DNA of 64,000 bases. Source: Nemertoderma westbladi (taxonomy: Eukaryota > Animalia > Xenacoelomorpha). Below the pieces are notes generated by a model. It did not search any database and was not told where the DNA came from. It worked only from the letters and a program-made list of their open reading frames with translations. Shown here one piece after another: positions 1,614 to 64,000 of this stretch. Made by a program: the position numbers and the translations under genes. The stretch's first letter is position 1. Every line of letters begins with the position of its first letter. Location: contig JAUCBJ010007881.1 of NCBI GenBank assembly GCA_032718475.1, positions 1 to 64,000 of the forward strand. Direction: 5' to 3'.

Positions 1614-1753
1614 TATATAGCAATGTCAATTGATAATATTGAATTTTAGCTAAATGATTTTACAAAATTTTAAATAAATTAAACTTTTATGAAAATAAAT
1701 AAAACTTTTTAATATAAAACTTAGAGAATGACTGGGAATGCGTTGAACGGGGG

Positions 1754-1852: not shown

Positions 1853-2068
1853 AGAGAGCAGATGCGAGTACAGGGGTAAAGTGCCCGCCCATCCATGGTG
1901 AGATAACGTCACACTAACTCTCAAGGATAGTTATACTCACCATTCAAATATCCCTCGCAAACCAGATTCCCCCCAGCATCTAACGTATTCCACTTCAATG
2001 CAAAATATATAGAGCTTTAGTTGGATTTGAACCTGTGCTTGTAAACTTTTTTGTGCTCGTATATTGAA

Positions 2069-3273
2069 GTGAGGCATAGACTATGCCTCACTGAGGCATA
2101 GTCTATGCCTCAGTGCCTCAGTGAGGCATAGTCTATGCCTCAATGAGTCATAGTCTATGCCTCAGTGCCTCAGTGAGGCATAGTCTATGCCTCAGTGAGT
2201 CATAGTCTATGCCTCAGTGCCTCAGTGAGGCATAGTCTATGCCTCAGTGAGGCCTAGTCTATGCCTCAGTGAGGCAGAGTCTATCCCTCACTGCCTCAGT
2301 GAGGCACTGAGTGAGGCATAGACTATGCCTCAGTGAGTCATAGTCTATGCCTCAATGCCTCAGTGAGGCATAGTCTATGCCTCAGTGAGGCATAGTCTAT
2401 GCCTCAGTGAGTCATAGTCTATGCCTCAGTGCCTCAGTGAGGCAGTGAGGCATAGTCTATGCCTCAGTGAGGCATAGTCTATGCCTCAGTGAGTCATAGT
2501 CTATGCCTCAGTGAGTCATAGTCTCTGCCTCAGTGCCTCAGTGAGGCCTAGTCTATGCCTCAGTGAGGCCTAGTCTATGCCTCAGTGAGGCATAGTCTAT
2601 GCCTCAATGAGTCATAGTCTATGCCTCAGTGCCCCAGTGAGGCATAGTCTATGCCTCAGTGCCTCAGTGAGGCATAGTCTATGCCTCAGTGAGGCATAGT
2701 CTATGCCTCAGTGAGTCATAGTCTATGCCTCAGTGCCTCAGTGAGGCATAGTCTATGCCTCAGTGAGGCATAGTCTATGCCTCAGTGAGGCATAGTCTAT
2801 GCCTCAGTGCCCCAGTGAGGCATAGTCTATGCCTCAGTGAGGCATAGTCTATGCCTCAGTGAGGCATAGTCTATGCCTCAGTGCCTCAGTGAGGCCTAGT
2901 CTATGCCTCAGTGAGGCCTAGTCTATGCCTCAGTGAGGCATAGTCTATGCCTCAGTGAGTCATAGTCTATGCCTCAGTGCCTCAGTGAGGCAGTGAGGCA
3001 TAGTCTATGCCTCAGTGAGGCATAGTCTATGCCTCAGTGAGTCATAGTCTATGCCTCAGTGAGTCATAGTCTATGCCTCAGTGCCTCAGTGAGACCTAGT
3101 CTATGCCTCAGTGAGGCCTAGTCTATGCCTCAGTGAGGCATAGTCTATGCCTCAGTGAGGCATAGTCTATGCCTCAGTGCCTCAGTGAGGCATAGTCTAT
3201 GCCTCAGTGCCTCAATGAGGCATAGTCTATGCCTCAGTGAGTCATAGACTATGCCTCGGTGAGGCATAGTCTG
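2069..3273. repeat. Palindromic 22-bp satellite with occasional 8-bp TGCCTCAG inserts, about 50 units
   Basis: Unit is TGAGGCATAGTCTATGCCTCAG; TGAGGCATAG and CTATGCCTCA are reverse complements. Confidence 0.95.
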
Positions 3274-9205: not shown

Positions 9206-10613
9206 GACTATGTATACCGTTGAATGTCTACTGCTGTATTACAGTCTGAGTAAGTCTAATAACTCAGTATTAACTGCTAGCCTAGTAATTAATTACCGTT
9301 ACTGCTACTCAGTGTAGCGTGATATATATATAATATATTAGAATACCGGTATACTTATAGTATATATAACTATATAAGTATTATTACAGACTAGGTTTAT
9401 CACAGAATACCGGTATAATTTTAGCACAAATATATATAAATATATAATAGGCCTATCGGAATACCGGTATACAGCTTACAGTTTGTAGGATATATAATTC
9501 TGAAATAGAATTAATTACAAGTACCGGTATAATTTCAGCCTAGATTTATAGAAATAAAGATAATAGGCCTATCGTAAATACCGGTATATCAATTATTTCA
9601 AATAATTGAATTTCTGTTACTTTAGGGTTACTTTGTTACTTTACTTACTTTATTACCGTTATTTGAGCAGTAATCCAACTGATATTGGGACCTAATGGTT
9701 GTATGGTAGGCCTACTATTTATAAATCGTTAGATTTGATTTATAATATATATACCCGTTTTAGTGGGTTTTGTCAATGTTTGAAATAAATGTTATTATTT
9801 CTGGGGTAATCACTACACAAAGCGGTGCGCTTTCAATGAAGTGTTACTTATGAGACACTAAAACAAATATTACTAATTTACCTAAGTTACTTAATACTAC
9901 AAATTACTTACAATTCGGGTGAGATTACAATCTCTAAATAAATGCAAAAATTTACAAAAAACACAAAATACGAATTTTTAGGGTAATTTTACAAGAAGTC
10001 TACAAACCAGCCTAACAAAGGGTTAGAATACCGGTTATTACAACGGACAGGGTACTACGGTATTTGAAATAATAAGTAGTAGTAAATACACTGCGTTGTC
10101 TAGATAGGAAAATACCACCGCCTGACGACCTATAGCCGTATCGCTATAGGTTCTACGTTATGTATCACGGAGTGTTCCTACCTAGAAGTTAATAGAGCTA
10201 ATCGAATGTGCCTATCAACCACTTTACAACACAAATATAATGCCTACAATTATTACTTCCGGAAAGCACTGTACACTAAACCCTAAATTAGGTACGAGTA
10301 CTTGTACAACAAATAATCAGTAGTTAAATATACTTGAACAGCTAAAAGAACCACGGCATCTGCTGGAGTGACCGATGCACAAAATCACCAGTCTTTACCT
10401 ACGCCGAGCAGCCCGTGTAGTACCGAGGTTAATTTAACTATAGCGGTATGTATAACAAACACAATTACTGTAGGAACAAACTTAGGGAATGAATGTTGCG
10501 AATAATCGCATAAACTCTGAATAATAAATATTACGCTACGCGTACAAACTACTCAAACAAAATACAGACCGAACACTGACAGACTACTATCAAACCTAAA
10601 CAAACCACGGTAT

Positions 10614-15269: not shown

Positions 15270-18200
15270 TAGTTCTGTAGGTTGGTCCCTAGGTTGTACA
15301 CAGTCCTGTAGGTCGGCCCCTGGGTTGTACACAGTTCTGTAGGTCGGCCCCTAGGTTGTACACAGTTCTGTAGGTCTGCCCCTGGGTTGTACACAGTTCT
15401 TTAGGTCGGCCCCTCGGTTGTACACAGTTCTGTAGGTCGGCCCCTAGGTTGTACACAGTTCTGTAGGTCGGCCCCTAGGTTGTACACAGTTCTGTAGGTC
15501 TGCCCCTCGGTTGTACACAGTTCTGTAGGTCGGCCCCTGGGTTGTACACAGTTCTGTAGGTCGGCCCCTCGGTTGTACACAGTTCTGTAGGTCGGCCCCT
15601 CGGTTGTACATAGTTCAGTAGGTCGGCCCCTCGGTTGTATACAGTTCTTTAGGTCGGCCCCTGGGTTGTACACAGTTCTTTAGGTCGGCCCCTCGGTTGT
15701 ACACAGTTCTGTAGGTCTGCCCCTCGGTTGTACACAGTTCTGTAGGTCGGCCCCTAGGTTGTACACAGTTCTGTAGGTCGGCCCATAGGTTGTACACAGT
15801 TCAGTAGGTCGGTCCCTAGGTTGTACACAGTTCTGTAGGTCTGCCCCTCGGTTGTACACAGTTCTGTAGGTCGGCCCCTGGGTTGTACGCAGTTCTTTAG
15901 GTCGGCCCCTCGGTGGTACACAGTTCAGTAGGTCGGTCCCTAGGTTGTACACAGTTCTGTAGGTCTGCCCCTCGGTTGTACACAGTTCTGTAGGTCGGCC
16001 CCTCGGTTGTACACAGTTCTTTAGGTCGGCCCCTCGGTTTTACATAGTTCTGTAGGTCGGTCCCTCGGTTTTACATAGTTCTGTAGGTCGGCCCCTAGGT
16101 TGTACACAGTTCTGTAGGTCGGCCCCTCGGTTGTACATAATTCTGTAGGTCGGCCCCTCGGTTGTACACAGTTCTGTAGGTCTGCCCCTCGGTTGTACAT
16201 AGTTCTGTAGGTCGGCCCCTCGGTTTTACACAGTTCTGTAGGTCGGTCCCTCGGTTGTATACAGTTCTGTAGGTCGGCCCCTCGGTTGTACACAGTTCTG
16301 TAGGTCTGCCCCTCGGTTGTACACAGTTCTGTAGGTCGGCCCCTCGGTTTTACACAGTTCTGTAGGTCGGCCCCTGGGTTGTACACAGTTCTGTAGGTCT
16401 GCCCCTCGGTTGTACACAGTTCTGTAGGTCGGTCCCTCGGTTGTATACAGTTCTGTAGGTCGGCCCCTCGGTTGTACACAGTTCTGTAGGTCTGCCCCTC
16501 GGTTGTACACAGTTATGTAGGTCGGCCCCTCGGTTGTACATAGTTCTGTAGGTCGGCCCCTCGGTTGTACATAGTTCTGTAGGTCGGTCCCTCGGTTGTA
16601 CACAGTTCTGTAGGTCGGCCCCTCGGTTGTACACAGTTCTTTAGGTCGGCCCCTCGGTTGTACATAGTTCTGTAGGTCGGTCCCTCGGTTGTACATAGTT
16701 ATGTAGGTCGGTCCCTCGGTTGTATACAGTTCTGTAGGTCGGCCCCTCGGTTGTACACAGTTCTGTAGGTCGGCCCCTCGGTTGTACACAGTTCTGTAGG
16801 TCGGCCCCTCGGTTGTACACAGTTCTGTAGGTCGGCCCCTCGGTTGTACACAGTTCTTTAGGTCGGCCCCTCGGTTGTACATAGTTCTGTAGGTCGGTCC
16901 CTCGGTTGTACATAGTTATGTAGGTCGGTCCCTCGGTTGTACACAGTTCTGTAGGTCGGCCCCTCGGTTGTACACAGTTCTGTAGGTCGGCCCCTCGGTT
17001 GTACACAGTTCTTTAGGTCGGCCCCTCGGTTGTACATAGTTCTGTAGGTCGGTCCCTCGGTTGTACATAGTTATGTAGGTCGGCCCCTCGGTTGTACACA
17101 GTTCTGTAGGTCGGCCCCTCGGTTGTACATAGTTCTGTAGGTCGGTCCCTCGGTTGTACATAGTTATGTAGGTCGGCCCCTCGGTTGTACACAGTTCTGT
17201 AGGTCGGCCCCTCGGTTGTACACAGTTCTGTAGGTCGGCCCCTCGGTTGTACACAGTTCTGTAGGTCGGCCCCTCGGTTGTACACAGTTCTTTAGGTCGG
17301 CCCCTCGGTTGTACATAGTTCTGTAGGTCGGTCCCTCGGTTGTACATAGTTATGTAGGTCGGTCCCTCGGTTGTACACAGTTCTGTAGGTCGGCCCCTCG
17401 GTTGTACACAGTTCTGTAGGTCGGCCCCTCGGTTGTACACAGTTCTTTAGGTCGGCCCCTCGGTTGTACATAGTTCTGTAGGTCGGTCCCTCGGTTGTAC
17501 ATAGTTATGTAGGTCGGCCCCTCGGTTGTACACAGTTCTGTAGCTCGGCCCCTCGGTTGTACATAGTTCTGTATGTCGGCCCCTGGGTTGTACACAGTTC
17601 TGTAGGTCGGCCCCTCGGTTTTACACAGTTCTGTAGGTCGGTCCCTCGGTTGTATACAGTTCTGTAGGTCGGCCCCTCGGTTGTACACAGTTCTGTAGGT
17701 CTGCCCCTCGGTTGTATACAGTTCTTTAGGTCGGCCCCTCAGTTGTACACAGTTCTTTAGGTCGGCCCCTCGGTTGTACACAGTTCTGTAGGTCTGCCCC
17801 TCGGTTGTACACAGTTCTGTAGGTCGGTCCCTCGGTTGTATACAGTTCTGTAGGTCGGCCCCTCGGTTGTACACAGTTCTGTAGGTCGGCCCCTCGGTTG
17901 TACATAGTTCTGTAGGTCGGCCCCTCGGTTGTACACAGTTCTTTAGGTTGGCCCCTCGGTTTTACATAGTTCTGTAGGTCGGTCCCTCGGTTTTACATAG
18001 TTCTGTAGGTCGTCCCCTCGGTTGTACATAGTTCTATAGGTCGGTCCCTCGGTTGTACACAGTTCTGTAGGTCGGTCCCTCGGTTGTACATAGTTTTTTA
18101 GGTGGGCCCCTGCGTTGTACATAGTTCTGTAGTTCTGCCCCTCGGTTGTACACAGCTCTTTAGGTCGGCCCCTCGGTTGTACACAGTTCTTTAGGTCGGC

Positions 18201-18594
18201 CCCTCGGTTGTACACAGTTCAGTAGGTCGGCCCCTCGGTTGTATACAGTTCTGTAGGTCGGCCCCTCGGTTGTACACAGTTCTTTAGGTCGGCCCCTCGG
18301 TTGTACACAGTTCTGTAGGTCGGCCCCTCAGTTGTACACAGTTCTGTAGGTCGGCCCCTCGGTTGTACACAGTTCTGTAGGTCGGCCCCTCGGTTGTACA
18401 CAGTTCTGTAGGTCGATCCCTCGGTTGTAAACAGTTCTTTAGGTCGGCCCCTGGCTTGTACATAGTTATGTAGGTCTGCCCCTCGGTTGTACACAGTTCT
18501 GTAGGTCGGTCCCTCGGTTGTACACAGTTCTGTAGGTCGGCCCCTCAGTTGTACACAGTTCTGTAGGTCGGCCCCTCGGTTGTACACAGTTCTG
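15270..18594. repeat. 31-bp satellite, about 107 copies
   Basis: Unit GTAGGTCGGCCCCTCGGTTGTACACAGTTCT with recurring point variants. Confidence 0.97.
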
Positions 18595-47458: not shown

Positions 47459-50400
47459 TTACGTTGGGGAGTCCCTAGATGTTTGTTGGAATAGGGAGGT
47501 GGTCGTGGGAAGAGTATCTTGCCTTCCATAGTTTCCGGATAGCTCTCGGTCTCTTTCCAGTAAACATAAACGACCAACTGGGCGATTGAGTTGTTGTGTT
47601 TCGAATACAATTCCAGGTTTCTTAAAGTTACGTCGCATGACGACGAGTTCTACTCTGTTGGCCACTCTGTTGGTAACGAAGACGCTGAACTGACAGACTT
47701 CATTGGTTATATACTCCAAAACGAGTAAACTTTAGCAGTTCTCCCTTAAGTGAATCATCCCACGAGTGGTTTTCAAGCCACATTTGTTGCACTAAGCTCC
47801 GAGCAACCAATATAACTGGACTAATAAATCCCAATGGATCGAAATAAGTGCTCAGTATACTTAGGCAAATCCGTTTAGTTCTAACTGGATTCTCTCGCTG
47901 TTTTTACAGGAAAAACAAGATATCTCTCTCCGTGTCCCATTTTAAACCAAGTGTCTTGGTTTCCGGAAGATCGTCCTTGATGAGGTCCAGATCTTTAACA
48001 CCTCGGTCTTCTACCGGGATCGATTCCAAAAACTCACGGGAGTTACTAGTGAATTTGGTTAGTCAAAATCCACCGCGTTGCAAGCACTCCACCGTTCCCT
48101 TGGCAACATCAATGGCTTCTTCCACCGATGGGAGGGACTTTAAATTGTCGTCCATGTATATATCCCGTTTGATGTTGTCGATAACCGCTTTAGAGAAGGC
48201 GTCTCGGTTGTCATCAGCAGTGGTACGCACTACTGAACAAGCGTTCGAGGGGCTTGAGATGATCCTGAAAGCCTGGATGGTCATCCAGTACTCCACCGGT
48301 TTTAGGTTGAGGTCTCCTTCAGGCCACCACAGAAATCGTAGGCTGTCTCGATCCCTATCCAGCGCCTTGACTTGTAAGAACATGCCTTCTATATCCGAAG
48401 CGAAAGCGATAGAATATTGCCGTAATCTTAATAGTATTCCCAACAAGGATTGGAGTAAGTTGGGTCCCGGCAACAATTCGGAGTTCAGGGATTGACCCAT
48501 GTAAAGGGCGGAGCCGTCGAACACTACCCGGACTTCGTTGGGTTTACCGGGTTTGGGAACGTAATGGTGTGTTAGATAATACGTTCTCTCTGTTATGTGT
48601 GTTTCTTCCGGTACTCGCTCCGCGTATCCCTTATCGATAAATTTCTTAGCTGGGTTTTATACATTTCCCTGGCTGAAACATTGGCTGTAAGACGCCAATG
48701 TAGTTGTGCGATTCTCTTTTCCGCTAAAGGTCGGTTATTTATAAAGTTGGGTTCTCGCCGTCGGAACGGAAGACCAATCTCATAGCGACCTTCATCTTTC
48801 AGAAAACGGGTAGTCGTTTCCTGAATCTGCTTGGCTCTCTCTTCCTCGACGGACAAGGCCTTGTCGTAGGAATTGGGCTCTACGGCTTCTTGAGTAAGGA
48901 ATCGTACGGCGTGTTCATCGCGAATTTTGTTATTGTATCGATCTATCACTTCGTTTAATTCGTCGTTATATGTGAATTGTCCACCTTGTTGATCGATGAG
49001 ATGGCACAAGTTTACTTGGTTTACCCAAGTTTGATTTTCGGTGAGGAGGTCGATTGTATTTTCCTCGTCATATCAGTGGTGGTTTCTCCCTCACTGATTT
49101 CTTCTTCCCATTCACTCACCTGATGTATCCTGTCATTAGGGAGTCTTTCCATTAGGGTTCTATGGGAAGGTCCAGTGAAGAACCAACCTACTCTCGTTCT
49201 TCCCGCATACGTTTGTAATGGTTGCGGTCGAGCAGGCCGTTTTTCTAAGGTCTCAAGCGCTTCGTGCGCGTTTTGGCCGATTAATATCTGAACCCCTGGG
49301 TAATCGGTGTTGAATCTAGGGATATCATGTTGCTGGGTAAAATGGTCTTCATCCCAGTTGTAAGGCTCCACTTGGCTAGTAGCAAAGTTCTTTATCGCCA
49401 CCATTTTTACCGACCTTACGCTATGTTCTCCTAGTTCATCCTGGGGAGTGAACAACTCACCCACATAGTAGTCTGTAGCTACTGTGGATTTCCAAACCTG
49501 CATAATTCCTGAAAGGTTCAACTTAGTTCGGAACTTGGGTTGTCCAGCAAAGATGTCTTCGGCTAGTTCTTTGTCGATGAATTTACCTGTACTGCCGGAG
49601 TCAAGGAGGGCGTTTACTATCAGGCTCTTCCCTACACCATGGACTCTCAGTTGCACCACAGGGAATTCCCGGATTCCGACGTTAGAAGTTGGCGCTTTCC
49701 AAGATGGTTGTCGGTCCGGAATAGTCAGTCGAGGCTCTTCATTGTCGGTTTCAGTCTCATATGTAAGTGCTCGATACACCGCGGTGTTTATCATATAACA
49801 GGATTCGTTTTCGTCGGAAAATTCGTCCGTGTAGAATCCTTCCATCTCAGAGCTGTGGTCAGTGTCGTTCACATCACTGAATTGGACATGTAGTTCGGGC
49901 TCACTTACCTGACTCGTGCGGGTTCTGTCAAATTCAGTGTGCAGCAAGATATGATGTTTTGCGCCGCACTTAGCACACCTAGCATCTGAGTAACAGGTCC
50001 ACCGTTGGTGTCCTCGTCTGAGGCAATTATAACACAACCGCTTATCCCACATGACATCACGTCTATCCTTAAGGGATTTCTTCAAGAATTCATCACACCC
50101 ACTCAAGCGATGTGGCCCGTCGCACAATGCACATTAGGGTTTGATATTACTTACTTTAACCTGTGTGGTGTTGTGCAACTTGTTCTTTCTTCGAGCTTTC
50201 TTCCATGAATTCTCTTAGGAGACGTACGAGGAGTTGTTACCTGTTCTCTCCTGTCACTGGTTCGAGACTTAAATTTACTTACGTCCTTTCTCGTTTTATT
50301 GACATAATAAGATCTTTCGGTGTCTTTCCCGCTGTTCTCCTCGTATGAGGTTTGGCTTTCGCCGTCGTCTGTATAACACACTGGTGTTACCTTTCTCCTA

Positions 50401-52342
50401 GAAATGGGTTTTTCACTCACCTTATTTTCCGGTGTCTTCTCTCGGGACTGCTTTAGGAGCTGTAATCTTACCTCTCCATTTAAGAATGACATGAGATCAG
50501 CCATGGTAGGGTCCCTTTGTTGCTGGTCCATCATATAGAGAACCCTTTTGTCCCAATGCATACCTACTCCACCTTTTGGCAAAGTAGATGCTACGGCTCC
50601 AACAACAATAGAACTCTGATATTCCTGAGACTTACCTAGCCAATCTAACTGTCTACATATCTCCTGGATCTCATCGAAAAATTCTATAATCCCGCTGCTA
50701 AGAAACTTTCGGGGCGCTACTAATTTCGCATACAAATACCTAGCTATGTTAGTCCTATTACCATACCTGATGTTTAGTGTATCCCAAACTTGTCTTAATC
50801 CATCTGGATGTCCAATAAACTTTAACGCCATTAACTTGGGAGGTCCATCCAGGCACTCGATAAGGAATCTAAGTTTCTCTCCGTTGGATAGTACAGAGTT
50901 CTGTATATTTTCTTTATAATATTCATTAAAAGGTAACCATTTCATCTCATCTCCATTGAACTTGACGACCTCTCCCACCTTTACCGCTTGACGGGCTTCG
51001 GTTCTAACCATTTGACGCGTAAAACTTTCTTGAGCCATCGTATTATTTAATATCGAGTTATCGGTATATAAATTTCTCGGATTATGATCAGATCTGTATG
51101 GGATATCATTGTCAACAGGTTTATAATTACCCTTAATAGGGTTTACTATAGGAGTTTCTACTTCACTAGCAGTATAGATGCGTGTAGGCTCCACACCTTG
51201 CGCATGAAATACTTCAGACCTAACAGGTTGACACATTGTTACAGGGGGTGGTGGTATACCCATTTGTATATTTACTAATTTATCGCGCTCTAAAGCGATA
51301 CTCTGCTGCACTTCTTGCAACTCTAACCTACTCTCTCTTACTGTTCCCTTTAACTGCTGAACAGTCCCTTCCAACTCTCGGACCTGCTGGGAAGAAAGTC
51401 TTTTATGTTCTTCCAGCTGCCCACGATTCATCCCCCGCCGTCCCTCGTCCACCCACTCAACCGCTGCCGCGGGAGCCGCCAACGTGGTAGCCGGGTGACG
51501 CGTGGGGACGACGGGAGACAAGTCATTTATGTCTTGCTCGGCGTCCAGGACCGGGAGTGATTCAGGGGCTAGTCTACTGGGCACAGGTAGTTTAGTACTG
51601 TGCAAAGGGAATTTAGAGTTAGGTTCTGTAAGTATAGGGGTCTCTATCACTGGAGTGACTTCAATGACAGGCCTAATTATTTCGGGCTCATCTACTATAG
51701 TAGGGAGTCTTTCTATTCTAATAATTTGGTCTGTAGGTTCAGGATTACTTAAATCTACACTAGCTAGTTGCCTTTTCACAGCTGGAGGCAAATTAGGCAA
51801 TTTCTGATGGTGTGGCGTTCTTCTACGTCCGCTGGAACGAGATTTATTTCCTCCACCTTCGGGATCTGTTGTATCACCCTCATCGGAGGAGGTAAATCCC
51901 TGTCTTCTGGGAGTAGATCGACTCAGTAACTGCATCTGAGTAGCTGTCCTTTGTTTCTTCAAGTAATCTTGTTTCGCCTGAAGGTTCTCCAGCTCTAGTT
52001 GGGTAGTCGCTTCAGACGCTTTCAGTACTGCTTCTGCCACTGCCGCCTTTCTTTCAGCCTCTGCAGCTAATGCCTTCCTCTCAGATTCTGCCGCTGTCGC
52101 TGCCGCTGCTGCTTTTCTTTCAGATTCCGCCACTGCTGCTGACCTTCAGTCTTCTATTTGCCGTTTCTTTAATTGTTCTTCTTGATCCATTGCCATGTGG
52201 ATGCTTTCATCATATTTAGCCTGCTCCGTGGCTAATATTTCCGCATCTAACGAGTCCAACACAAATTTGGCTCCCTCACTATTAGGATGAAGTCCAGCTA
52301 GCCGTCTCCTTAGCTCTTTGTCACCTATAAATCGTTGATAGT
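47459..52342 (-). pseudogene. Disrupted gag-pol of B; RNase H core and integrase core deleted
   Basis: Gag 50151-52133; knuckles and protease 49021-50127; RT 48063-48524 (LLPGPNL, SDIEGMF, IYMDD); FDPLG; then VFVTNRV joined directly to RPVGRLCLLE. Confidence 0.88.
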
Positions 52343-52779
52343 TGTTAGCTTATTCAATAAAGTTATAAGCCGATAAGCAATATTGGGAGCCACGAGATTG
52401 GGCAATTAACCAACTCGTGCCATCCCAATAAGAATGGGAAGGAAGCACACAATGAGGGTCAGGGGCCAAACCCCTAACCCAGAGAGAATAGGTGGAGTGA
52501 ATGGGAACACTCCAAAGGGCGCCAACAAGGGTATCAACCAATCAGAGGGGGGAAAGGCATCGATTAGGTAGAGTAACAAGGCCAACCGTGCAATATAGCC
52601 ACTTGGCAGTAATAATACCAATTCAGTTATCTCAGTGCAATACCGGTGCTAGTTTAGGTTATTACATAGTTTTAGATAGGGAAGGACCGGGACTTTAGTT
52701 ACCGTATCCCGCCTTCCATATACGACAATACTATATCTATATCTATATCCGCATATCATATTATATACGACAAACAACA
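52343..52779 (+). repeat. Putative 5' LTR of C (right end uncertain: 52779 or 52863)
   Basis: TGTT start and candidate AACA end; second LTR not available for confirmation. Confidence 0.5.
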
Positions 52780-52931
52780 TCAGAACTCATTCACTCTTTA
52801 TACACGGCGGGGACGCGTGAACTAAAACCGGATAAACCGGGATCCCTCTTGGATGCCGTCACAGTAACTAAACCAGCTGCCGCCCTAGATAAACTCAATA
52901 ACCACTAGCCACCGAAATCTGCAGAAGAGAG

Positions 52932-55900
52932 ATGAGTCGGTCAGGTGACACGACACCGACGCGGACCCCGGACGAAGAGCTAACGATCCGCGAGGCCGCA
53001 ACCAGGCGATACAGGCCCACAACGCCGGACCCATCGGTAACGGGTCATCCGGCAGTTCAGGACGAGGGGGGCCTGGAACCCGAGGTCGAACCGAGAGAAA
53101 GAGAGAGCGAGACGGAGGGAGACGGAGACGAGTCGACACGGGACGGGGGTCGACGCACCGGTGTCGCCGGCCAGCCACAGGCCGAGGGCGACGAGCGGCC
53201 TGCCGAAACGGCGACGGTGGGGCCGACGGTGCGGCCCCGGACGCAGAGAGACGAAGGAGATATCGGTACCGATGTCGCCGGCCAGCCACAGGCTGAGGGC
53301 GACGGACGGCCCGCCGGAACGGCGACGGTGGGGCCGCCGGTATGACGTCGGACCCGGAGAGACGGACGAAAGATCGGCGACGAGGACGTCGGGGTTTCTG
53401 ATCGACTCCGACAGGCCTACAACGCGACCCAAAGACTAATAAAGGACGCTAAGAAGGAAGGGGCGGAGATAGACGAGGTGAGACTGAGGAAACGACTAGG
53501 TGAGTCGGATAGACACTTTAATTACCTAATGCGTTTTGGGCAGAGGGAACTAGCCGAGGAGAGAGCAAAAGGGGTTGCCAGCGAACTGTTTGAACTATGG
53601 GAATGTGGGAGTATGGAACCTAGTGTAGCGTCAGTGTACATAGGGCCATACTTGGTCGATGCCCGGGGAGTAAAATTAGTGGGTTGGAACAGACCTGAGG
53701 AGGGCGAATCCGAGGCTGACCCCGCGGATTCGGTCTCGTCGGTCAGAGGGAGTTCCGGGAGGAGGGGGAGAGCTAGTAGATCGGGAAGGCGGAGGGAATC
53801 CTCCACAACCGATAAGTCTGCTACATCCTCCGCAAAAGAAAGACGGGTGAGAGAGATAGACGCTAGGTACCGTCTCAATCTAGCAGTGCAAGGTAATAGA
53901 GAAGTAGGTAGACGGCTAGAGGAAGGGAGAGTGCTGCTGGAGAGGGAAATGGCGTCGATTGGAGAGATAAGAGAGAGGGCCGAAAGGGCCGTGAGGAGCC
54001 TTAGGGAGTATGATGAAATAGAGTTGAAGGAACAAGAAGAGCGTGTGGCGAGAGAGAAAAGCGAACGCGAGAAGCGTGAAGCGAAGGAGGAAAGTGAACG
54101 CAGAGAGCGTGAAGCGAGGGAGGAGAGTGAGCGTAGAGCGCGTGAGGCGAGGCGAAGGGAGGGGATTAGGAGAGAGATGAAATTGGCCAAGCAGACCGAA
54201 AGGGAGGCTATGGATAAAATAGCAAAAGTGGAGCGTGAGCGAAAAGAATTGGAGAAACAGCGAGACAAACTCGTAGAGTATGAAGCTGTACACACGCGTG
54301 AGGTGGAACTGGCGCAGATGGGGGAGTCTGAGAGCGAGGCTGGCTCGAGTATTTTTGAGGAGCCGGGGGCCGTGGATACATTTATTAATACCCCACTTAC
54401 AGGGACCGCACGACAGACCCAAAACTGGTGTGACCGTACGGGCGGGGGGGGTAATAATGATAATGGTACAGTAGACGTGGTTAATATTAATAGTACCGTA
54501 TGGGACAATTCTAATCAAACCTTTATTGCAGGAAATACTTTACCTAGTGGTAGTAATTTAAATTTAAATCAGAACATTCCTAATATTAATGTAGAAAATA
54601 ATTCTAATATTAATGTAGCTACGCAAAATAATCCAATTAATCAAAGTAATAACCCAAATTCGAACTTACAAAATAATTTTAAGTAATGCAATAACACAAA
54701 ATAATCCAAATAACTTAAATAATTCAGCGAGCCCGAATTTACAAAATAATTCAGATAGTGTAGTCGCGCAAGATAATTCAAATGATTTTATTCCGAACGA
54801 ACAAATTAATTCCGTTTCCAATACGGGTGCTATTAATGTAAACACGTCGGGCGTGTATGGCCAGACAGACGAGGGCCTGGTAGGCCACGTAGTTGGTAGG
54901 CAGGGAATAGCTGGGTTAGGTAGACCCGGCGAGGGCCTGGTAGGCCACGTAGTTGGTAGGCAGGGAGTAGCTGGGTTAGGTAGACCCAGCGAGGGCCTGG
55001 TAGGCCACGTAGTTGGTAGGCAGGGAGTGGCTGGGTTAGGTAGACCCAGCGAGGGCCTGGTAGGCCACATAGTTGGTAGGCAGGGAGTAGAGGGCCTGGT
55101 AGGCCACGCAATAGCAGAGGGAGAGGCGGGGGTGAATAGACCCGACCGCGGTAGGGTTGATGTGTCGACTGGAGAGGGATATAGTAGCGGGGTGAGGAGT
55201 AGCGAAGTTAGATGTGGCGAGTGGGGGGGGGGGGGCTACGAGAACCCCACAACAGCGAGTTAGCGGCGAAAGGGGGGGCAGAGAGTGTCCCACAGCCGTC
55301 AGCGGATAATGCGCGGGCCAAAATAGGTAAACCGCAACAACCGGCGACGGAAAGTAATAGGGGGATTGCGAGTATCCCCAGCGGCGTGCGACCGAGCAGA
55401 GAGAGACAGGTTGACGTCGTAAGAGGGCGGACGAAGCGTCGAGCCCGATCAGAAGAGGGAAGAAGAACAGTGGGGTTTAACCGGGAGGTCGACGAGAGAT
55501 CTCACGAGCGGGAATACTCCACTGAAAGGAGAAGAAGAGAAGACAGTAGTAGAGGTATCGCCGCGAACGATAGAAGAGCGAGGACGGATAGTGAGCCGTC
55601 GGTAGTTGAGATGAGAACGGAGAGTCAGTGGGGTCGGACTCCGGGAGATTGCCGTCGCCCCGGAGAGATGCGACCCGGCGAGGCGCACTACGCGCCGATG
55701 GAGGGGTACGCGATGTACCGGTACGAAGACGAGAACAGTAGAGGGGGGGGGTCGAAGAGAAACTTTCCGATGGAATACACCTATTGATCGAGAATACGGT
55801 AGCCGCGGGGAGGATTATTCGAGAAGAATAAACTTCGATCCCGAGCGACACATGCAGACTGTAGGACATACTGTAGGCCTTACTGCACATACCATAGGCC

Positions 55901-56087
55901 ATACTGAGAGAGGCAATGTAGGCGATAGGATGGCGTGGACAACGTGATTAAACCCGGAAGTCGCGGAATACATACCGGCGAGTAGGCCAGAAGCTGATAG
56001 GCCTATACCGGTACCAGCACAGCAGTATGACTACAGCATGCAGGGACATAACATATACCCAGGGGAGGGGGGAATTATTGCGGATAG
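52932..56087 (+). pseudogene. Long disrupted N-terminal gag extension of C (coiled coil, Asn-rich region, 20-aa repeats)
   Basis: ORFs 52932-53345 and 53478-54686 share a frame across one TGA; later frameshifts fall at T/G homopolymers; 60-bp repeat EGLVGHVVGRQG at 54870-55110. Confidence 0.7.
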
Positions 56088-59000
56088 GTGTATGGGCCCC
56101 AACATATTAACATCAACCCCAGTACCAAACATACCGGTGGGGGGGGGGGACAGGGTGACATTCCCCCATCACAATATCAACAATATACCCCGATAGGGGC
56201 AAGAACAACGAGACCCTTGGATGAGAATAGGTCGTGTGATACAGACATATGGAGGGGGCCGCTACCCCCGATGACATACCCAAGTCAGAGAAAGTCAAGA
56301 AATAGGACAGACGGAACGCACCAGACAGGAGAAACTATGCAGCACCCATCGAATCCATTGGAAGCGCAGGCGATGGGGATGGCCACGTTGATCGATGCGT
56401 TGAAAACGAGGATCGAGTTACCACCCGTGGAACCATTCAAATTCGATGGGAGCAGGCCGGAAGAATATCTACAGTTTCGGCGCATGTATAGTAACGAAAT
56501 ACTAACAAAGAACTTGACGCAGGCGGAGTGCCTAAAGTATCTGCAAGTGTACACGGGAGGCCCAGCATACGACATCGTGAGGCAATATCAAGGAATAGAG
56601 GGCGGCTTCACGACAGCATGGCGGGCACTGGATAGGGAATACGGGCACCCGGCCAAGATCATCAGGCAGACGCTGAGAGGCATAACATCGGGTGGCCTAC
56701 AGGATAATCCCGTTAGCATTAAGACGTTCGCTAACAAAGTCGAAAAGGCGCTAATCGTGCTGAAGACGCTAGACGCGCCGTACGAGCTCAATGCGTCCAA
56801 CAACATCACCACGATAGCGCAGGCACTACCAAACTGGCTGCGCAACAAGTGGAGAAAAATCGCCTTCTCCACTCGAGATAAGAAGGGTGCGGAACCGGGT
56901 TTAGAAGAAATGTCAAACTTCTTAAACTACGAGGCTGAACTAATAACTGACCCAGTCTATAGCGAAGACAGCCTGGGAAAGGGACCGAAGACAGACTACC
57001 ATAGACCGAAACCAGAGCACAACACATCGAACGCATTACCGAGACTCAGGCAATCATTGCCATATGCAGCGACGCAGGGGACTGCAAGTCCACAGCTAGC
57101 CGAGGATAAGACAACATCATGGAACGGACAGGGAAACAATAATAACACGAATAAACATAACCCCAGTACGTCCAATAGGCAAAACCCAAACAATAAGAAT
57201 AGTAGGGACTTTGGTACGAACGCAACTGCGATACGCAATGCACTGTATAAAGAGGGCTACGACCCAAAGAGCAAATGTCAGCTACACGCAAATGCGCTTC
57301 ATCAAACTATGAACTGCAGGTACTGGCAGGCGCTACCTAGGCAAGATCAGATAGACTACGCGTTCAGCAATAAAATCTGCTCGCGATGTGTAATGAGTGG
57401 ACATAGAGCAAGGGAGTGCAAGGAGAAGCCAATGAAATTTGGTCAAAGGAGAGGCCAAACGATGGCGACGAGCACAGTAGGGGCGAAGAAGAGAGGAACG
57501 GTGCTACTTGGAGTAGTACCAGTACGAGTGATCGGGGAAGGCAATCGATCAGTAACAACACTAATGCTGGTTGATAGTGGAGCTGCCTTCACATTAGTCG
57601 AGGAATGGGTGGCCGAGGAGATAGGATTGAGAACGAGGCCAAGCAGGATGGCGGTAACAACCATCTCTAGCAAAGATGAGATCCTGGAGATGAGAACAGG
57701 ACGGTGCGCAATTGCAGCAGTGGCACCAGGATGCGACTATGGGGCAACCATCGACCCCATTCAAGTGATAGAGTCAATTAATATCAATGCCAGGCGGCCA
57801 ACCAACATCGAGGTCGAGCAGTATAAATTCCTGGACAACATTGACTTCTCAATCCCAGACGTGGACGTTAGGAAGGTATCCATCATAGTAGGTATGGACT
57901 GCCCAACGGCCCACGAAAGAATGCAAACGGTCTTCGGCGAAGACAAGCAGAGTGACCCGGTGGCCATATTAACACCATTCGGGTGGACGCTGAGTGGTCC
58001 AATCAAGAGCAAGATACCATTTAGGATGTCGGAGACATCAGGATGCATGTTCGCGGGAACAATGCAGGAAATGGGTGACGAGGGAGCAGAGGAGCAGCTC
58101 AAAAGACTGCTCAGACAAGATTTCGAGGGACTGAAAGAAACCGGGGTCGGGACCTCGGTAGAAGACAAGCAGGCTTTACAAAGCGTGGAGGAATCGATGA
58201 CATGCAATGAGGGGCGGTATACTATAGGAATGGTATGGAAACTACCGAAGATACCGCTGCCCGACAATAGGGGGATGGTACTCACGAGACTCCGCAAGCT
58301 GAAACAAACACTAAAACGGAGCCCCGAGAAGAATGAGTACATCCACAGGACGATTAAGAAGTACGTCGAGAAAGGATGGGCCGTGGAGTTACCGGTCGAC
58401 GAGCCGAACACGGATAGGACATATTACCTGCCACTGCACGTGGCTTTAGATCCAAAGAAAGGTAAACTAAGGATGGTAGTCGACGCATCGGCAAAGACCG
58501 ACGGAAAGTGCTTAAACGACTACCTGTTAGAAGGCCCAAACATATACAATTCGGGCATAGAGGTGTTACTTAGATTTAGAAATGGGAAACACGCCTTCAC
58601 GTGTGACATAGAAGGCATGTTCAACCAAGTCCGTGTAACGGAAGAAGATAGCGACAGTCAACGCTTCTTATGGTATAACGGCGAGGAAGAACCGTCGATA
58701 ATACCGGCATATAAGATGGTAGTACAGAACATGGGGGCCAAGTCGTCTTCATTTACGACGACTATGGCAGTGAGAGACACAGTAAAGGGGAGGGAAGATA
58801 GATACAGCAGTAGGGCCGTCGATATGATTCGACGCGGCTTCTACGTAGACGACGGAATGGAGTCTGGAAATACGGTTAAGGAGATACTGGATACAGGGCG
58901 CGAGGTTCGCGACATCCTAAAAGGATCCGGCTTTAACCTGACCAAATTCCAATCCAGTTCGGAAGAATTTATCAAAGCCATAGAGGACAGGAAACCAGAA

Positions 59001-61481
59001 TCGACCATGGATAATCCCACAACAGCCAAAGGGCAGGACATGGCGATTAAGAGAACGGAATCCCAGCAGAAGGCATTGGGAATCGTGTGGGATAGAAAGA
59101 CAGACGAACTGAAGTATCAGCTGAGCCAGGAGGGCGCAGACATCCACACGAAGAGGGGCTATGTATCGTATATAGCAAGGATATACGATCCCCTAGGCCT
59201 AGCATCCCCATTATTAGTCACGGGGAAACAGATACTCAAGAGAGTATACAAATTGAAAGATGAGTGGGACGTAGAGGTACCAGAGGAAATCAAGAAACAG
59301 TGGAGCAAGTGGACAGGAAACTTGGAGAAGATGGGAACATACAACATGCCAAGGGTGTATTTCCCGGATGGGAACATGACGAATCTGGACCTACACATGT
59401 TCTCCGACGCGTCGTTGGAAGCGTACGGAGCGGCACTCTACTTAGTACAACGAGAGGGGGCTCATAAGCCAAGACTAGCCTTTAGTAAAGCAAAGTCAAC
59501 GCCACCAGATTCAGCATCAGTTCCCAAGTTAGAATTGACAGCTGCGAGACTAGGAGTAAGAGCCACAGCCTACCTAGTGGATACTATTCCCAACATAGTG
59601 GAGACACACTACTGGACGGACTCCATGGTAGTGCTTGGTTGGCTACATAACGAAAGGACGAGATACCCGATATTCGTCGCGAATAGAGTGGACGAAATAA
59701 GGGCGAGCACAGAACTGGAAAGGTGGCACTACTGCCCAACAGACGAGAACCCAGCGGACTTGCTGTCGAGGGGCGTGGAACGCCACACTTTCCTGAAGAA
59801 GGAAGTATTGTGGCAACATGGGCCACAATTTCTGAGCGATAGGGAGGCCTGGCCGCCGATGAGGAAGGTGGACCCGGGCTCGGAAGTAGTATCAGAAGGA
59901 GAAGAGGGAGATTCAGAGGGAGAAGAGATATACTCCCAGATGGTGAGGGAGATTAGGGACGTGCAACCAGGACGGGAACTGTGCGATAACCCGACGGATA
60001 AACTCCTCAGCTACAGTTCTAGTTGGTATAAGACCAAGAAACTAGTGGCGTACTGGAGAGCCTTCGGGAATTTCCTTGCGGGAGTCGGCAAGGACAAGAA
60101 GATCAGGACAACCATAGATCTGGAAGGAGCGGCCAAGGCAGTGATCCGCTATGAACAACGGAAGAACTACGGCGACGAGGTGGAACGCATCGGTAACCAA
60201 CAGCACCTCCGACGGGACAGCGAGCTGATTACGCTGTCGCCACAACTCAATGACGATGGGATTCTAGTAATGAATTCTAGGGTGGGATACAACAACAGCA
60301 TAGTCGTACCACCGAAACCCATCATCATTCCTACAGGATCGCCAATAGTCCACCAGATCATATGGGACTCCCACAAATCGATATTACATGGGGGCACCAA
60401 CCGAACCCTCACAGAGATAAGGAGGACCTATTGGGTCAAACAACTGAGGAAGAAGGTAAAAGCAGTAGTGGGGCAGTGCCAGACCTGCCGACGAGCGAAG
60501 AAGGAGCGAGCTGTACAGGAGATGGCGCCACTACCGGCGAGTAGGGTAAGACAGCACGACCCGCCATTTACGCATTGCGGTGTGGACATGTTCGGGCCGA
60601 TAAAGATCAAAGTGATGCGACACACAGAGAAACGCTACGGCATTATCTTCGTATGCAACAATACGCGGGCGGTAGGGATAGAACTCGCCCAAGATGCAAC
60701 CGCATCAGCGTTCATTAACGCCTTAGAAAGGTTTAGGGACCGCAAAGGTGGGACGATCGCAGTGATATACAGCAACAACGGCACCAACTTTGTGGGCGCA
60801 GAGAGTGAGATGGCAGAGGCCTTGGACATCTTGGAGGGAGAAGAAGTCAAGGCAGCCATGAGGAGACGACAAGTAAAGTGGGAGAGAAGGACGCCGTATG
60901 CACCACATACACTAGGATGCGTCGAGAGACTGGTGGGCAGTTCAAAGCGTCTAATGACGAAGCTAATGAACACCCACATGGTCACTGAGGACGTCTTACG
61001 GACAGTACTTGCGAAGTGCGAGGGGATCATTAATAGCAGACCGCTATATCCGGAGAATGATGACCCTGAGTCACTAGACGTGCTGACGCCTAGCCATTTC
61101 CTGATGGAAAGGCCAGTGACCATCGATATGCGGGGTGTAGACCCAGATGACATACACTCCCGCCAAAGTTGGAAAGTCGCAAAGGCAATAAGCGCAGAGT
61201 ATTGGAGGAGGTGGGTCGAGGAATACCTACCCACACTCCATAAACGAAGCAAGTGGAGGAAGTCAAACAGGGAGTTAAGAGAGGGAGATCTCGAAATCGT
61301 TACGGATGATACTATCATCAACAACCAATGGCGGTTGGCGAGAGTTGTAGGCACCTACTCCGACGAGGACGGAAGAGTCCAATCGGTAGAAGTGCGGATA
61401 GGTGGAAAGATAGGTGCGAAGGACAGAAAAACCTACAGGAGAGCTGTAGGCAAATGCTGTCTATTAGAAGGGGCACCTTAG
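56088..61481 (+). CDS. BEL/Pao Gag-Pol of C (gag core, protease, RT, RNase H, integrase)
   Basis: KFDGSRPEEY; CSRC..GH..C; LVDSGA; YYLPLH..LRMVVDAS..FYVDD; FSDAS..PKLEL; HHCC; GVDMFGP; SNNGTNF; VERL; WVEEYL. Confidence 0.95.
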   Translation: MYGPQHININPSTKHTGGGGGQGDIPPSQYQQYTPIGARTTRPLDENRSCDTDIWRGPLPPMTYPSQRKSRNRTDGTHQTGETMQHPSNPLEAQAMGMATLIDALKTRIELPPVEPFKFDGSRPEEYLQFRRMYSNEILTKNLTQAECLKYLQVYTGGPAYDIVRQYQGIEGGFTTAWRALDREYGHPAKIIRQTLRGITSGGLQDNPVSIKTFANKVEKALIVLKTLDAPYELNASNNITTIAQALPNWLRNKWRKIAFSTRDKKGAEPGLEEMSNFLNYEAELITDPVYSEDSLGKGPKTDYHRPKPEHNTSNALPRLRQSLPYAATQGTASPQLAEDKTTSWNGQGNNNNTNKHNPSTSNRQNPNNKNSRDFGTNATAIRNALYKEGYDPKSKCQLHANALHQTMNCRYWQALPRQDQIDYAFSNKICSRCVMSGHRARECKEKPMKFGQRRGQTMATSTVGAKKRGTVLLGVVPVRVIGEGNRSVTTLMLVDSGAAFTLVEEWVAEEIGLRTRPSRMAVTTISSKDEILEMRTGRCAIAAVAPGCDYGATIDPIQVIESININARRPTNIEVEQYKFLDNIDFSIPDVDVRKVSIIVGMDCPTAHERMQTVFGEDKQSDPVAILTPFGWTLSGPIKSKIPFRMSETSGCMFAGTMQEMGDEGAEEQLKRLLRQDFEGLKETGVGTSVEDKQALQSVEESMTCNEGRYTIGMVWKLPKIPLPDNRGMVLTRLRKLKQTLKRSPEKNEYIHRTIKKYVEKGWAVELPVDEPNTDRTYYLPLHVALDPKKGKLRMVVDASAKTDGKCLNDYLLEGPNIYNSGIEVLLRFRNGKHAFTCDIEGMFNQVRVTEEDSDSQRFLWYNGEEEPSIIPAYKMVVQNMGAKSSSFTTTMAVRDTVKGREDRYSSRAVDMIRRGFYVDDGMESGNTVKEILDTGREVRDILKGSGFNLTKFQSSSEEFIKAIEDRKPESTMDNPTTAKGQDMAIKRTESQQKALGIVWDRKTDELKYQLSQEGADIHTKRGYVSYIARIYDPLGLASPLLVTGKQILKRVYKLKDEWDVEVPEEIKKQWSKWTGNLEKMGTYNMPRVYFPDGNMTNLDLHMFSDASLEAYGAALYLVQREGAHKPRLAFSKAKSTPPDSASVPKLELTAARLGVRATAYLVDTIPNIVETHYWTDSMVVLGWLHNERTRYPIFVANRVDEIRASTELERWHYCPTDENPADLLSRGVERHTFLKKEVLWQHGPQFLSDREAWPPMRKVDPGSEVVSEGEEGDSEGEEIYSQMVREIRDVQPGRELCDNPTDKLLSYSSSWYKTKKLVAYWRAFGNFLAGVGKDKKIRTTIDLEGAAKAVIRYEQRKNYGDEVERIGNQQHLRRDSELITLSPQLNDDGILVMNSRVGYNNSIVVPPKPIIIPTGSPIVHQIIWDSHKSILHGGTNRTLTEIRRTYWVKQLRKKVKAVVGQCQTCRRAKKERAVQEMAPLPASRVRQHDPPFTHCGVDMFGPIKIKVMRHTEKRYGIIFVCNNTRAVGIELAQDATASAFINALERFRDRKGGTIAVIYSNNGTNFVGAESEMAEALDILEGEEVKAAMRRRQVKWERRTPYAPHTLGCVERLVGSSKRLMTKLMNTHMVTEDVLRTVLAKCEGIINSRPLYPENDDPESLDVLTPSHFLMERPVTIDMRGVDPDDIHSRQSWKVAKAISAEYWRRWVEEYLPTLHKRSKWRKSNRELREGDLEIVTDDTIINNQWRLARVVGTYSDEDGRVQSVEVRIGGKIGAKDRKTYRRAVGKCCLLEGAP

Positions 61482-61596
61482 TAAAGTTACAGAAAAGTTT
61501 AGTCGTCCAAGTTTTGGACTGAGGGGGGTGGGATTGAGGGCGAGACGCCCTTCCCACAAACAAAATAATAAAATAAAAAAAAATAAAATAGTACAT

Positions 61597-62212
61597 GGTA
61601 GGTACGCAGTTAGTAGGCAGAGAGTTAGTAAGAAGGTACGTAGTACCTAGTTAGTTAGTTAGTTAGGAGGTACGTAGTACCGCCAGTTAGAGAGTTAGTT
61701 AGAGGGTACGTAAGTACCGTTAGTTAGTTAGTTAGTTAGTTAGGAGCTACGTAGTACCGCCAGTTAGAGAGTTAGTTAGAGGGTACGTAAGTACCGTTAG
61801 TTAGTCAGAGAGTTAGAGGGTACGTAGTACCGCTAGTTAGTTAGAGTTAGAGGGTACGTAGTACTGATAGTTAGTTAGAGAGTTAGAGGGTACGTAAGTA
61901 CCGCTAGTTAGTCAGAGAGTTAGAGGGTACGTAAGTACCGCTAGTTAGTTAGAGAGTTAGAGGGTACGTAGTACCGATAGTTAGTTAGAGAGTTAGAGGG
62001 TACGTAGTACCGATAGTTAGTTAGAGAGTTAGAGGGTACGTAAGTACCGCTAGTTAGTTGGAGGATTAGAGGGTACGTAAGTACCGCTAGTTAGTTAGAG
62101 AGTTAGAGGGTACGTAGTACCGATAGTTAGTTAGAGAGTTAGAGGGTACGTAAGTACCGTTAGTTAGAAGAGTTAGAGTTAGAGGGTACGTAGTACCGTT
62201 AGTTAGAAGAGA
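61597..62212 (+). repeat. ~34-37-bp tandem array, about 16 units, each with a GGTAC-GTA(A)-GTACC hairpin
   Basis: Unit GTTAGTTAGAGAGTTAGAGGGTACGTA(A)GTACCGCTA. Confidence 0.92.
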
Positions 62213-62693
62213 GAGAGTAAGAGGTAAAAGGGGATATAGATATAGGTATTAGTTAGCAGTTAGTAGAGAGAGGGGGGCATATGAGTACAGCTGGATAAAT
62301 CGTGTGGCCACACGACGCATACTGCTGTACTGCATAGACCCACAGAGTAGGCCAGAATGTGGATTAGAGAATAGAATAATCCATAGGCAGTAGTAAGTAG
62401 TAGGACAGTAGAATCAAAGTAAATGGATAAATAAATAGAATAGGGCTGAAAGTTGTAAAATAGTGGCAACATAAGGGAAGTTATTCTAGAACATAATAAA
62501 AGTAACGGACAGAAATTGTAAATTACGCTCATTTACTAGCTTCAAAATTAATTAGGAATAATTTAGGTTAAAAGGCGCAGTTAAGTAGGAAATAGGCCAT
62601 TATCGAACTGTACAGAACATCCTAGATACATCACTCATCTGTATTGCGCCTTGGTAAGGCACCACCTTGCAGGTGAGCGAGTGAACGTTCGGA

Positions 62694-64000
62694 ATGGCGA
62701 GTAAGTTGATCAGAAAGAGAAAGGCGGAGTAAGGAGGAAAGGAGATACTGGTGGATTTCACCGAGAGGCATCCGGAAGAGAAGACGAGAGGATACTACGA
62801 GAGGTTGGAAAGGGGTCACGCGGCACGAGCGCTGCAGGATCACTTCCGGGAGGCGCACGAACAGCGGCTGGTCGGGACCTACGGGACCCCGTCGCTGGAC
62901 AACGCGATCTTCCAACACTTCCACTACGTGGTGAAAGGGGACGAGGCGAAGTTCGGGATTCCGAAATACCCGAGGGAATCACCGAGGAAGGACTGGAAGA
63001 GATTCATAGAGTCCGTCAACAGTGGAGGATATATGATCCTAGATGACGAGGGAACCGTGGAAGACGAAGCGGGTTCGAGACGAGGAACGGCAGGGTCGGC
63101 CAGGACCATACTCCTACATTTGGCCGCGCCAAATGGGGACATCTTCTTATTCGACCTAGGGACGTATGGGAAGAAGGACGGGCCGAAATTAGACCGATTA
63201 CCGAAAGCGGTACAAGTCTTAGTAAGAGAGAAGTCGACGACGAAAGTGGGATCGGCGATTCGCGAGGACGCGGAGAGGATCATCGGTCCGGACGCCACCA
63301 ACCTCCTGGATATGCAGAAAGTCTTTATGGCTATGACGGCACCGGATGGATTGGGGGTAGTCGAAAACGCAGGCCAATGCGGGGCGGTGGCGATGGACCA
63401 ATTATTGGGGCTCGTATGCCACAAACCGATGGACTGGGGGAAGTTTAGGGAAGAATACGGAGCAGAACCAGCGAACTCGCTAAAGTGGGGAGCGAGACAG
63501 GGAAAGCAGGAGGTATATCAGTTCCGCAGGGGAGCGATAAAGGTATATCAGAAGCGATATATCCTGCAGGAGGACTGGATGATGATAAGTTTGCTTAACT
63601 TATTCATGACCGTGATTATCGAGAGGGAACCAGGGGCATTTCTGTTATCGGGATCACCCCTAAGCTACAGGAGAGCCTTTAAAGTGGCCTTTGACGGTCT
63701 GGTAGACCACCCGGGGCTGAAGGGCGAGTCGGTGTACTACAACAGCCGACATCTGGTAGACGGGGAGACAGATACACCGTATCAGAGATGGGAGCAGCTA
63801 GAGACGGATAGACGAGAAGCAAAGCGACTGGAAGAAGTCGCTAGACGGGAGAGGATAGAAGCAGAGGAGAGGGAAGAGGAGGCCAGGACACAGAGTTACG
63901 GCTTCGAGGAACAGGCGGGCCTAGACGAACTTCATTGGACTTCGTCAGGGAGTTCGGGGGAGTCTCTAGGGCGAGAATTGGGATGGACGGTGGGATCGCC
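62694..64000 (+). CDS. Accessory ORF of C: putative DEDDy 3'-5' exonuclease (WRN-exo/RNase D/EXD-like), incomplete at window edge
   Basis: ATG at 62694, one in-frame TAA at 62730, then open from 62733 to 64000; YMILDDEG (Exo I), ILLHLAAPNGDIFLFDL, LPKAVQVLVREKSTTKVGSAIREDAERI (Exo II), NLLDMQ, YQKRYILQED (Exo III). Confidence 0.75.

Follow-up and report, generated by a model that had tools for sequence, protein, structure and literature searches.

What does the long reading frame that follows the pol gene of a BEL/Pao retrotransposon in Nemertoderma westbladi encode, does it belong to that element, and what would the element gain from it? The frame lies at the end of the window, by which we mean the whole 64-kb stretch of DNA that was analyzed. 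There a sense-strand frame, hereafter ORF3, runs for 422 codons without a stop until the window ends (62733 to 63998, plus strand), with an N-terminal part, a putative DEDDy-type exonuclease domain and a charged tail. The first-pass annotation had described it as an extra gene for a 3'-5' exonuclease, and its account of an uninterrupted frame after the pol stop holds. Among 1,000 dinucleotide shuffles, none stayed open for 422 codons in any of its six frames, 327 being the longest run; over ORF3 itself, the remaining five frames contain 7 to 25 stops.

The retrotransposon and the frame that follows it

The element upstream of ORF3 (element C) is assigned to BEL/Pao, as had been proposed, by Pfam matches to three domains specific to BEL elements (Peptidase_A17, E 2.9e-40; DUF1759, 1.1e-10; DUF5641, 4.8e-22) together with matches to protease, reverse transcriptase (RT) and integrase. 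The remainder of its gag-pol frame spans 1797 codons (56088 to 61481, plus strand) and carries, by Pfam, DUF1759, zinc knuckles, protease, RT, RNase H (Peptidase_A17), integrase and DUF5641, with protease, RT, RNase H and integrase in that order at Pfam positions 478, 831, 1021 and 1421. Both the YVDD motif of RT and the FSDAS motif of RNase H are kept; the second acidic position of the integrase is Asn, a residue that none of 120 relatives has there. Across RT to integrase, identity to the closest relatives is 35%; those with a name belong to molluscs, barnacles, fish, a tunicate, a sea urchin and cnidarians. Peptidase_A17 is common to all 120 BEL relatives listed. No viral contigs matching the integrase region were found.

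Ahead of this remainder lies the N-terminal part of gag (52932 to 56087, plus strand), which is low in complexity and charged and is broken at least four times in the window copy: the frame is stopped at 53343, shifts near 54650 and again near 55230, and meets further stops from 55785 on. The copy of element C in the window is broken. This N-terminal part is unusually long and Asn-rich and contains repeats of 111, 33 and 60 bp; if it is continuous in working copies, the gag-pol of element C would reach about 2850 codons.

A likely 5' long terminal repeat (LTR) of 462 bp with TGT...ACA ends lies at 52343 to 52804 (plus strand). It begins exactly where the minus-strand gag of a second element, B, loses its match to the related element A; in each of the three DNA sequencing runs, contigs of the B family part from the window sequence beyond 52342, and near the end of the candidate other contigs differ from the window before 52802. 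Judged from these borders, 52343 to 52804 is likely the 5' LTR of element C, inserted into the gag of element B. No second copy of it was found within the 64-kb window, which would put the 3' LTR past 64000 and give element C a length of at least 11,658 bp. No primer-binding site was identified, and no TGG start follows directly after 52804. The family to which element C belongs is high-copy.

Elements A (5048 to 9238, minus strand) and B (47848 to 52342, minus strand) are two copies of another BEL/Pao family and are 82% identical over 2857 nt. Element A is cut off behind protease; element B, a degraded gag-protease-RT with a DUF1759 match, is high-copy as well and has its gag interrupted at 52342, where element C begins. 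Elsewhere in the window, a 354-codon ORF (561 to 1625, minus strand) combines a C2H2-like finger at its N-terminal end with a long acidic repeat and a charged helical unit that recurs, and has sub-threshold Pfam matches only; it is flanked by a 30-bp perfect inverted repeat (2 to 31 and 1844 to 1873) and may be mobile-element cargo. A satellite at 2068 to 3272 is built of a 22-bp nearly palindromic unit with 52- and 74-bp higher-order repeats and many long inverted repeats, and a tandem array at 15271 to 18594 holds 107 copies of a 31-bp unit with 92% matches.

The pol stop is at 61479 to 61481, and the ORF3 frame begins 1.25 kb downstream. Forty nucleotides past this stop comes a polypurine-tract-like run (61521 to 61533, plus strand), with T-TG behind it; the 5' LTR does not recur downstream of this run within the window. 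By sequence, the run could be a polypurine tract, vestigial or internal, or could open a long LTR. It sits where the polypurine tract of a BEL element normally does and may mark an ancestral 3' end that predates the gain of cargo. A second such run is found in the spacer at 62265 to 62277. Between the two, Tandem Repeats Finder places an array of about 16 copies of a 37-bp unit (61635 to 62213, plus strand), and the number of units differs between copies among the contigs aligned to the window. An RNA hairpin is predicted at 62275 to 62341 (plus strand), some 350 nt before the ATG of ORF3, with a folding energy of -29.1 kcal/mol and a z score of -3.6 that is inflated by the choice of this stretch after its inverted repeat had been seen; none of 200 shuffles was as stable.

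In the window copy, an in-frame ATG and 11 codons (62694 to 62732, plus strand) are stopped by a TAA at 62730, and the next in-frame ATG, at 63033, lies three codons ahead of the first exonuclease motif. The stop at 62730 is plausibly private to a copy that is already broken elsewhere. A splice acceptor ending at 62672 had been suggested for expression in the manner of an env gene, and we find it unsupported: the splice-like site (62665 to 62677, plus strand) has a weak pyrimidine tract, falls outside the set with at least 9 pyrimidines in 13, and reads equally well as a donor, a donor-like site being called at 62673 that overlaps it. The spacer could equally hold an internal promoter for ORF3 in place of splicing; no TATA-like match was found in it. 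One sequencing run (X5) was discarded as evidence of expression because its RNA origin was only guessed, its depth was 1 to 3, and it carried the label of another organism.

By its translation, ORF3 is not env-like. The part in the window has no Pfam match to an env and no hydrophobic segment above a Kyte-Doolittle value of 1.32 (19-residue windows), a peak that falls on the helix of the third exonuclease motif, the scan ending with the window at 64000, ahead of the C-terminus; what can be read gives no sign of a signal peptide, a fusion domain or a transmembrane anchor. The tail contains a charged, Glu/Arg-rich stretch (63810 to 63930, plus strand; roughly residues 360 to 400). It had been described as a charged coiled coil behind the exonuclease motifs; the charge is plain, and the coiling, judged by eye from the translation, is probable.

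Exonuclease-type motifs and predicted fold

The order and spacing of motifs claimed for ORF3 are those of DEDDy exonucleases, as the ESM Atlas, a hidden Markov model (HMM) and an ordered-motif scan bear out, and all residues named in the first-pass annotation (D63042, E63048, D63267, Y63558, E63570 and D63573) are in frame. Our comparison set consisted of bacterial proteins, 22 of them WRN-like and 9 RNase D-like. The ExoI motif, D-x-E (63042 to 63050, plus strand), was placed by MAFFT alignment and the ordered-motif scan; its residues D104 and E106, numbered along the open frame, align with the D and E that are invariant in nine WRN-like exonucleases. The ExoII motif, K-x-G-x5-D with D179 (63243 to 63269, plus strand), is the sole segment picked up by both the HMM and hhalign, and the pattern K-x-G-x(4-5)-D is present in 22/22 WRN-like and 0/9 RNase D-like proteins. 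In the MAFFT alignment, K171, G173 and D179 of this motif, as well as Y276 and W282 of the next, fall on invariant columns.

The ExoIII motif, Y-x3-E-D-W (63558 to 63578, plus strand), has Glu where the family has Asp: all 22 WRN-like proteins read Y-x3-D-x-W and none reads Y-x3-E-x-W. Tyr and Trp are kept in ORF3, the aligned acid is Glu, and an Asp is the next residue, so that of the two acids previously offered for this position the alignment with WRN-like exonucleases favors E63570 and drops D63573. A literature search found no paper on tolerance of Glu at ExoIII in the Klenow fragment. The K-x-G and Y-x3-acid-x-W signatures together, which 22/22 WRN-like and 0/9 RNase D-like proteins carry, place ORF3 with the WRN/EXD2/Mut-7 type.

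Profile scores point the same way. An HMM built from the 22 WRN-like proteins, without ORF3, scored ORF3 at 7.2 bits, a value reached by 0/2000 shuffles (best of the 723 listed, 5.2 bits); the best other ORF of the window scored 6.2 bits among the 141 listed. An HMM of RNase D-like proteins alone does not pick out ORF3, to which it gave -1.6 bits, a score that 132 of 2000 shuffles reached. The hhalign match is weak (probability 13%, E 0.0022, 49 columns). In an ordered scan for five blocks derived from the 22 proteins, with blocks and gaps picked after the alignment had been seen, ORF3 scored 73.4, compared with 23.3 +/- 5.9 for 1,000 shuffles (maximum, 49.2), 26.2 for reversed ORF3 and no more than 32.1 for any of 12 natural decoys; four true members outside the profile scored 63.0 to 104.5.

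Searched in the ESM Atlas with residues 60 to 350, ORF3 matched two unnamed fungal clusters (0.95 and 0.94) and had 24 of 30 matches in PF01612 clusters. With residues 92 to 310, all 30 of the named clusters were PF01612, WRN-like ones included. Scores for PF01612 clusters were 0.92 to 0.94, with 174 to 186 of 256 features in common, figures to be read as one source and beside shuffled proteins that reach 0.9 in 4 to 10 of 100, a rate measured on whole proteins.

Structure prediction with a fold search had been suggested as a route to the fold. The single-sequence model found no fold (pLDDT 30.5). An alignment-guided model (pLDDT 62, pTM 0.64), in which a strand (positions 31 to 37 of the model) ends at the ExoI D-x-E, matched the folds of RNase D, EXD2, Nibbler, NrnC, WRN-exo, EXD1 and Egalitarian, matches that are partly circular in that the model rests on the WRN-like alignment. 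Its comparisons with NrnC, WRN-exo and EXD1 gave Z scores of 11.5 to 12.1 and root mean square deviations of 3.4 to 3.8 over 159 to 179 residues, the highest Z, 12.1, going with a deviation of 3.5 over 159 residues, with the same partial circularity. Taken together, the ESM Atlas, the HMM, the ordered-motif scan and the guided model make a DnaQ-like (DEDDy) fold for ORF3 very likely.

Sequence searches returned no relatives of ORF3. The Pfam match to PF01612 that might have been expected from the earlier description was not found, and ORF3 had no relatives in Pfam, NCBIfam, PDB sequences or 5.8 billion proteins, nor in viral, metagenome and genome contigs, phages, plasmids and six single genomes. 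The sole match among 1.84 billion representatives was to a 14-fold repeat protein over 19 residues and was discarded, and a profile search returned 36 PF01612 proteins, none of them ORF3-like. In the course of these searches we noted that MT837929.1 (816 to 1307), filed as a bacteriophage, matches Bacteroides-type DNA with a WRN-like exonuclease at 100% and is probably mislabelled.

ORF3 resembles the WRN-exo/EXD2/Mut-7/Nibbler branch of PF01612 in its ordered ExoI D-x-E, ExoII K-x-G-x5-D and ExoIII Tyr and Trp, and its nearest Atlas clusters are WRN-like. It differs from that branch in its low identity to bacterial members (about 17 to 19%), its insertions between motifs, its ExoIII Glu and its own N- and C-terminal parts.

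Comparison with known retroelements

Juno and Vesta, LTR elements of bdelloid rotifers, are of Ty3/gypsy type. Both, together with the Athena/Terminon elements, carry DEDDy ORF3s with a DEED motif (PMC5408684, available sections), in agreement with the first-pass annotation's mention of such accessory genes in rotifers; the same cases recur in the available sections of PMC6431247 and PMC6338049, the latter also discussing suppression of silencing by helicase cargo. According to the available sections of PMC5408684, no activity has been demonstrated for the rotifer ORF3s, a role in silencing was raised without a test, their presence does not clearly track copy number, and their evolution is compatible with neutrality; BEL/Pao is unmentioned there. 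The rotifer proteins are described in the same sections as RNase D-like with the motif DEED and as lacking coiled coils, whereas ORF3 of element C reads D-E-D-E, has the WRN-type K-x-G and Y-x3-acid-x-W signatures and ends in a charged tail. On this description, we do not file ORF3 in the rotifer Juno/Vesta/Athena pool, as it does not have the DEED motif. In Laccaria and Ectocarpus, Dada DNA transposons also carry a DEDDy domain, which, from the available part of PMC3706591, is set in the DDE transposase, in contrast to the separate retroelement ORF of element C.

The Belpaoviridae (such as Tas and roo) are described as encoding gag, pol and at most env in 4.2 to 10 kb, with LTRs of 0.2 to 1.2 kb (PMC8742986), which agrees with the earlier statement that canonical BEL elements have gag-pol with or without env. 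Element C is like them in its BEL-specific gag and pol domains, its domain order and a likely TG...CA LTR within the size range; it is unlike them in its predicted length of at least 11.66 kb and in a third ORF that is not env-like. The word "exonuclease" is absent from the available main text of PMC3118150, on BEL/Pao, and no BEL/Pao element with an exonuclease was found in a literature search beyond whose reach lay most subscription papers, Repbase reports and supplements. DEDDy cargo is thus known from rotifer LTR elements, and in BEL/Pao, going by the motifs of ORF3, it appears to be new as far as the literature found extends.

Possible roles of ORF3

The reading that we prefer, to which as a whole we give a probability of about one in three, is that the third gene of a high-copy BEL/Pao element encodes a 3'-5' exonuclease of the WRN/EXD2/Mut-7 type that would shorten host small RNAs, or the precursors of these, from their 3' ends and so weaken the silencing of element C. 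Its parts differ in strength. We consider it fairly probable, from the predicted active-site residues (D104, E106, D179, E280 and Y276), that working copies make an active two-metal nuclease, expressed from a separate subgenomic RNA and perhaps oligomerizing through the charged tail. That its substrate would be a silencing RNA is an analogy we hold with less than even confidence. Nibbler and Mut-7, of the same DEDDy branch, act on small RNAs. This kinship, the retention of the acids and the Tyr, the position of ORF3 as a separate gene and the high copy number of the element lead us to prefer small-RNA trimming. A still more specific proposal, in which this BEL/Pao family acquired, in an event separate from the rotifer and gypsy captures, a nuclease of the small-RNA-trimming branch as a suppressor of silencing by piRNAs or tRNA fragments, seems to us unlikely; if true, such a suppressor would help to account for the very high copy number of element C.

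An active ORF3 nuclease could instead serve replication: within the particle of an unusually long element it would trim cDNA ends, plus-strand flaps left by displacement, or what remains of primers. We regard this as rather unlikely. The length of at least 11,658 bp, compared with the family range of 4.2 to 10 kb (PMC8742986), speaks for it, as does a second polypurine-tract-like run after pol, at which plus strands could start internally; WRN-type exonucleases act on DNA (PMC5408684, available sections), and the DEDDy domain of Dada is thought to process cleaved ends (PMC3706591, available part). Against these points, an exonuclease domain occurs in none of the 120 nearest BEL polyproteins listed, a count that covers the polyproteins themselves and leaves separate neighboring ORFs out of view, so BEL replication generally needs none inside pol, and the product of a separate ORF would need its own way into the particle.

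It is also conceivable, if quite unlikely, that ORF3 is a weak or dead nuclease that, in the manner of EXD1, Egalitarian or Maelstrom, binds RNA as an adaptor, its tail joining the RNA of the element to a host partner. The replacement of the ExoIII Asp by Glu, the coiled-like tail behind the domain and the presence of EXD1 and Egalitarian among the fold matches would suit such a role; four positions that are still acidic and a Tyr that is kept would not. Dead members of the DEDD family usually drop the acids outright.

The preferred role in silencing takes ORF3 to be a gene of element C, and sequencing runs bear on this point. Five of the seven runs listed contain the stretch, among them three DNA runs from two samples and two studies, and over 52000 to 64000 tens of thousands of short contigs aligned, with depth in 30 of 30 bins in all three DNA runs. 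The ratio of summed contig depth of ORF3 to that of pol was 0.73, 1.02 and 0.61 in these runs, of which only the order of magnitude is used, since the depth of contigs does not measure copy number and the stretch itself served to find the runs; pol, spacer and ORF3 are repeated at similar depth. The codon usage of ORF3 correlates with that of the element C pol (0.71) and of the core of its gag (0.54), compared with 0.15 for the broken gag N-terminus and about -0.09 for the gags of A and B. By depth, by codon bias and by the absence of an LTR copy before ORF3, the earlier attribution to the BEL/Pao element stands as probable, and we consider it likely that ORF3 is an internal third gene, flanked by pol on one side and, past the window edge, by a 3' LTR on the other.

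A different anatomy, in which a long LTR beginning after 61521 to 61533 contains ORF3 or in which ORF3 belongs to another high-copy unit traveling with element C, is improbable. A purine tract at the usual place of the BEL polypurine tract, followed by T-TG, would fit it, and the junction between B and C could be explained by a deletion as well. A gene within an LTR, however, would be expected at no less than twice the depth of pol, and the observed ratios are 0.61 to 1.02, with the bin just ahead of ORF3 well below pol. The candidate LTR at 52343 to 52804, moreover, has TGT...ACA ends and begins exactly at the break in B. Among the loose contig ends listed, the B/C junction appears in 3/3 DNA runs, and none that is junction-like occurs between pol and ORF3, whether at 61535 or at 62672.

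Variation among copies gives a hint of constraint on ORF3. At least three contigs over it carry 11 to 27 substitutions each and no gap; 10 of the 12 indels listed fall in the spacer and none in ORF3, and of the 40 substitutions listed 2 fall in ORF3, one silent and one conservative. That ORF3 is a passenger with no present function, or resembles DEDDy enzymes by chance, is very doubtful: the lack of a database relative, the weak HMM and hhalign scores and the stop near the start in the window copy would agree with it, but stand against 422 open codons, three motifs in order with a score at the level of true members, and a pol-like codon bias that suggests long residence in the element.

With element C, the pattern of DEDDy-type cargo known from rotifer LTR and Penelope-like elements would extend to a second LTR superfamily. 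No function of DEDDy cargo ORFs has been demonstrated in the literature found; that a second superfamily would be involved, with another subtype of exonuclease, points to capture on more than one occasion and thus to a recurring advantage. Being single-domain and coming from a high-copy family, such an enzyme would allow a direct test of enzymatic counter-defence against small RNAs by animal retrotransposons.
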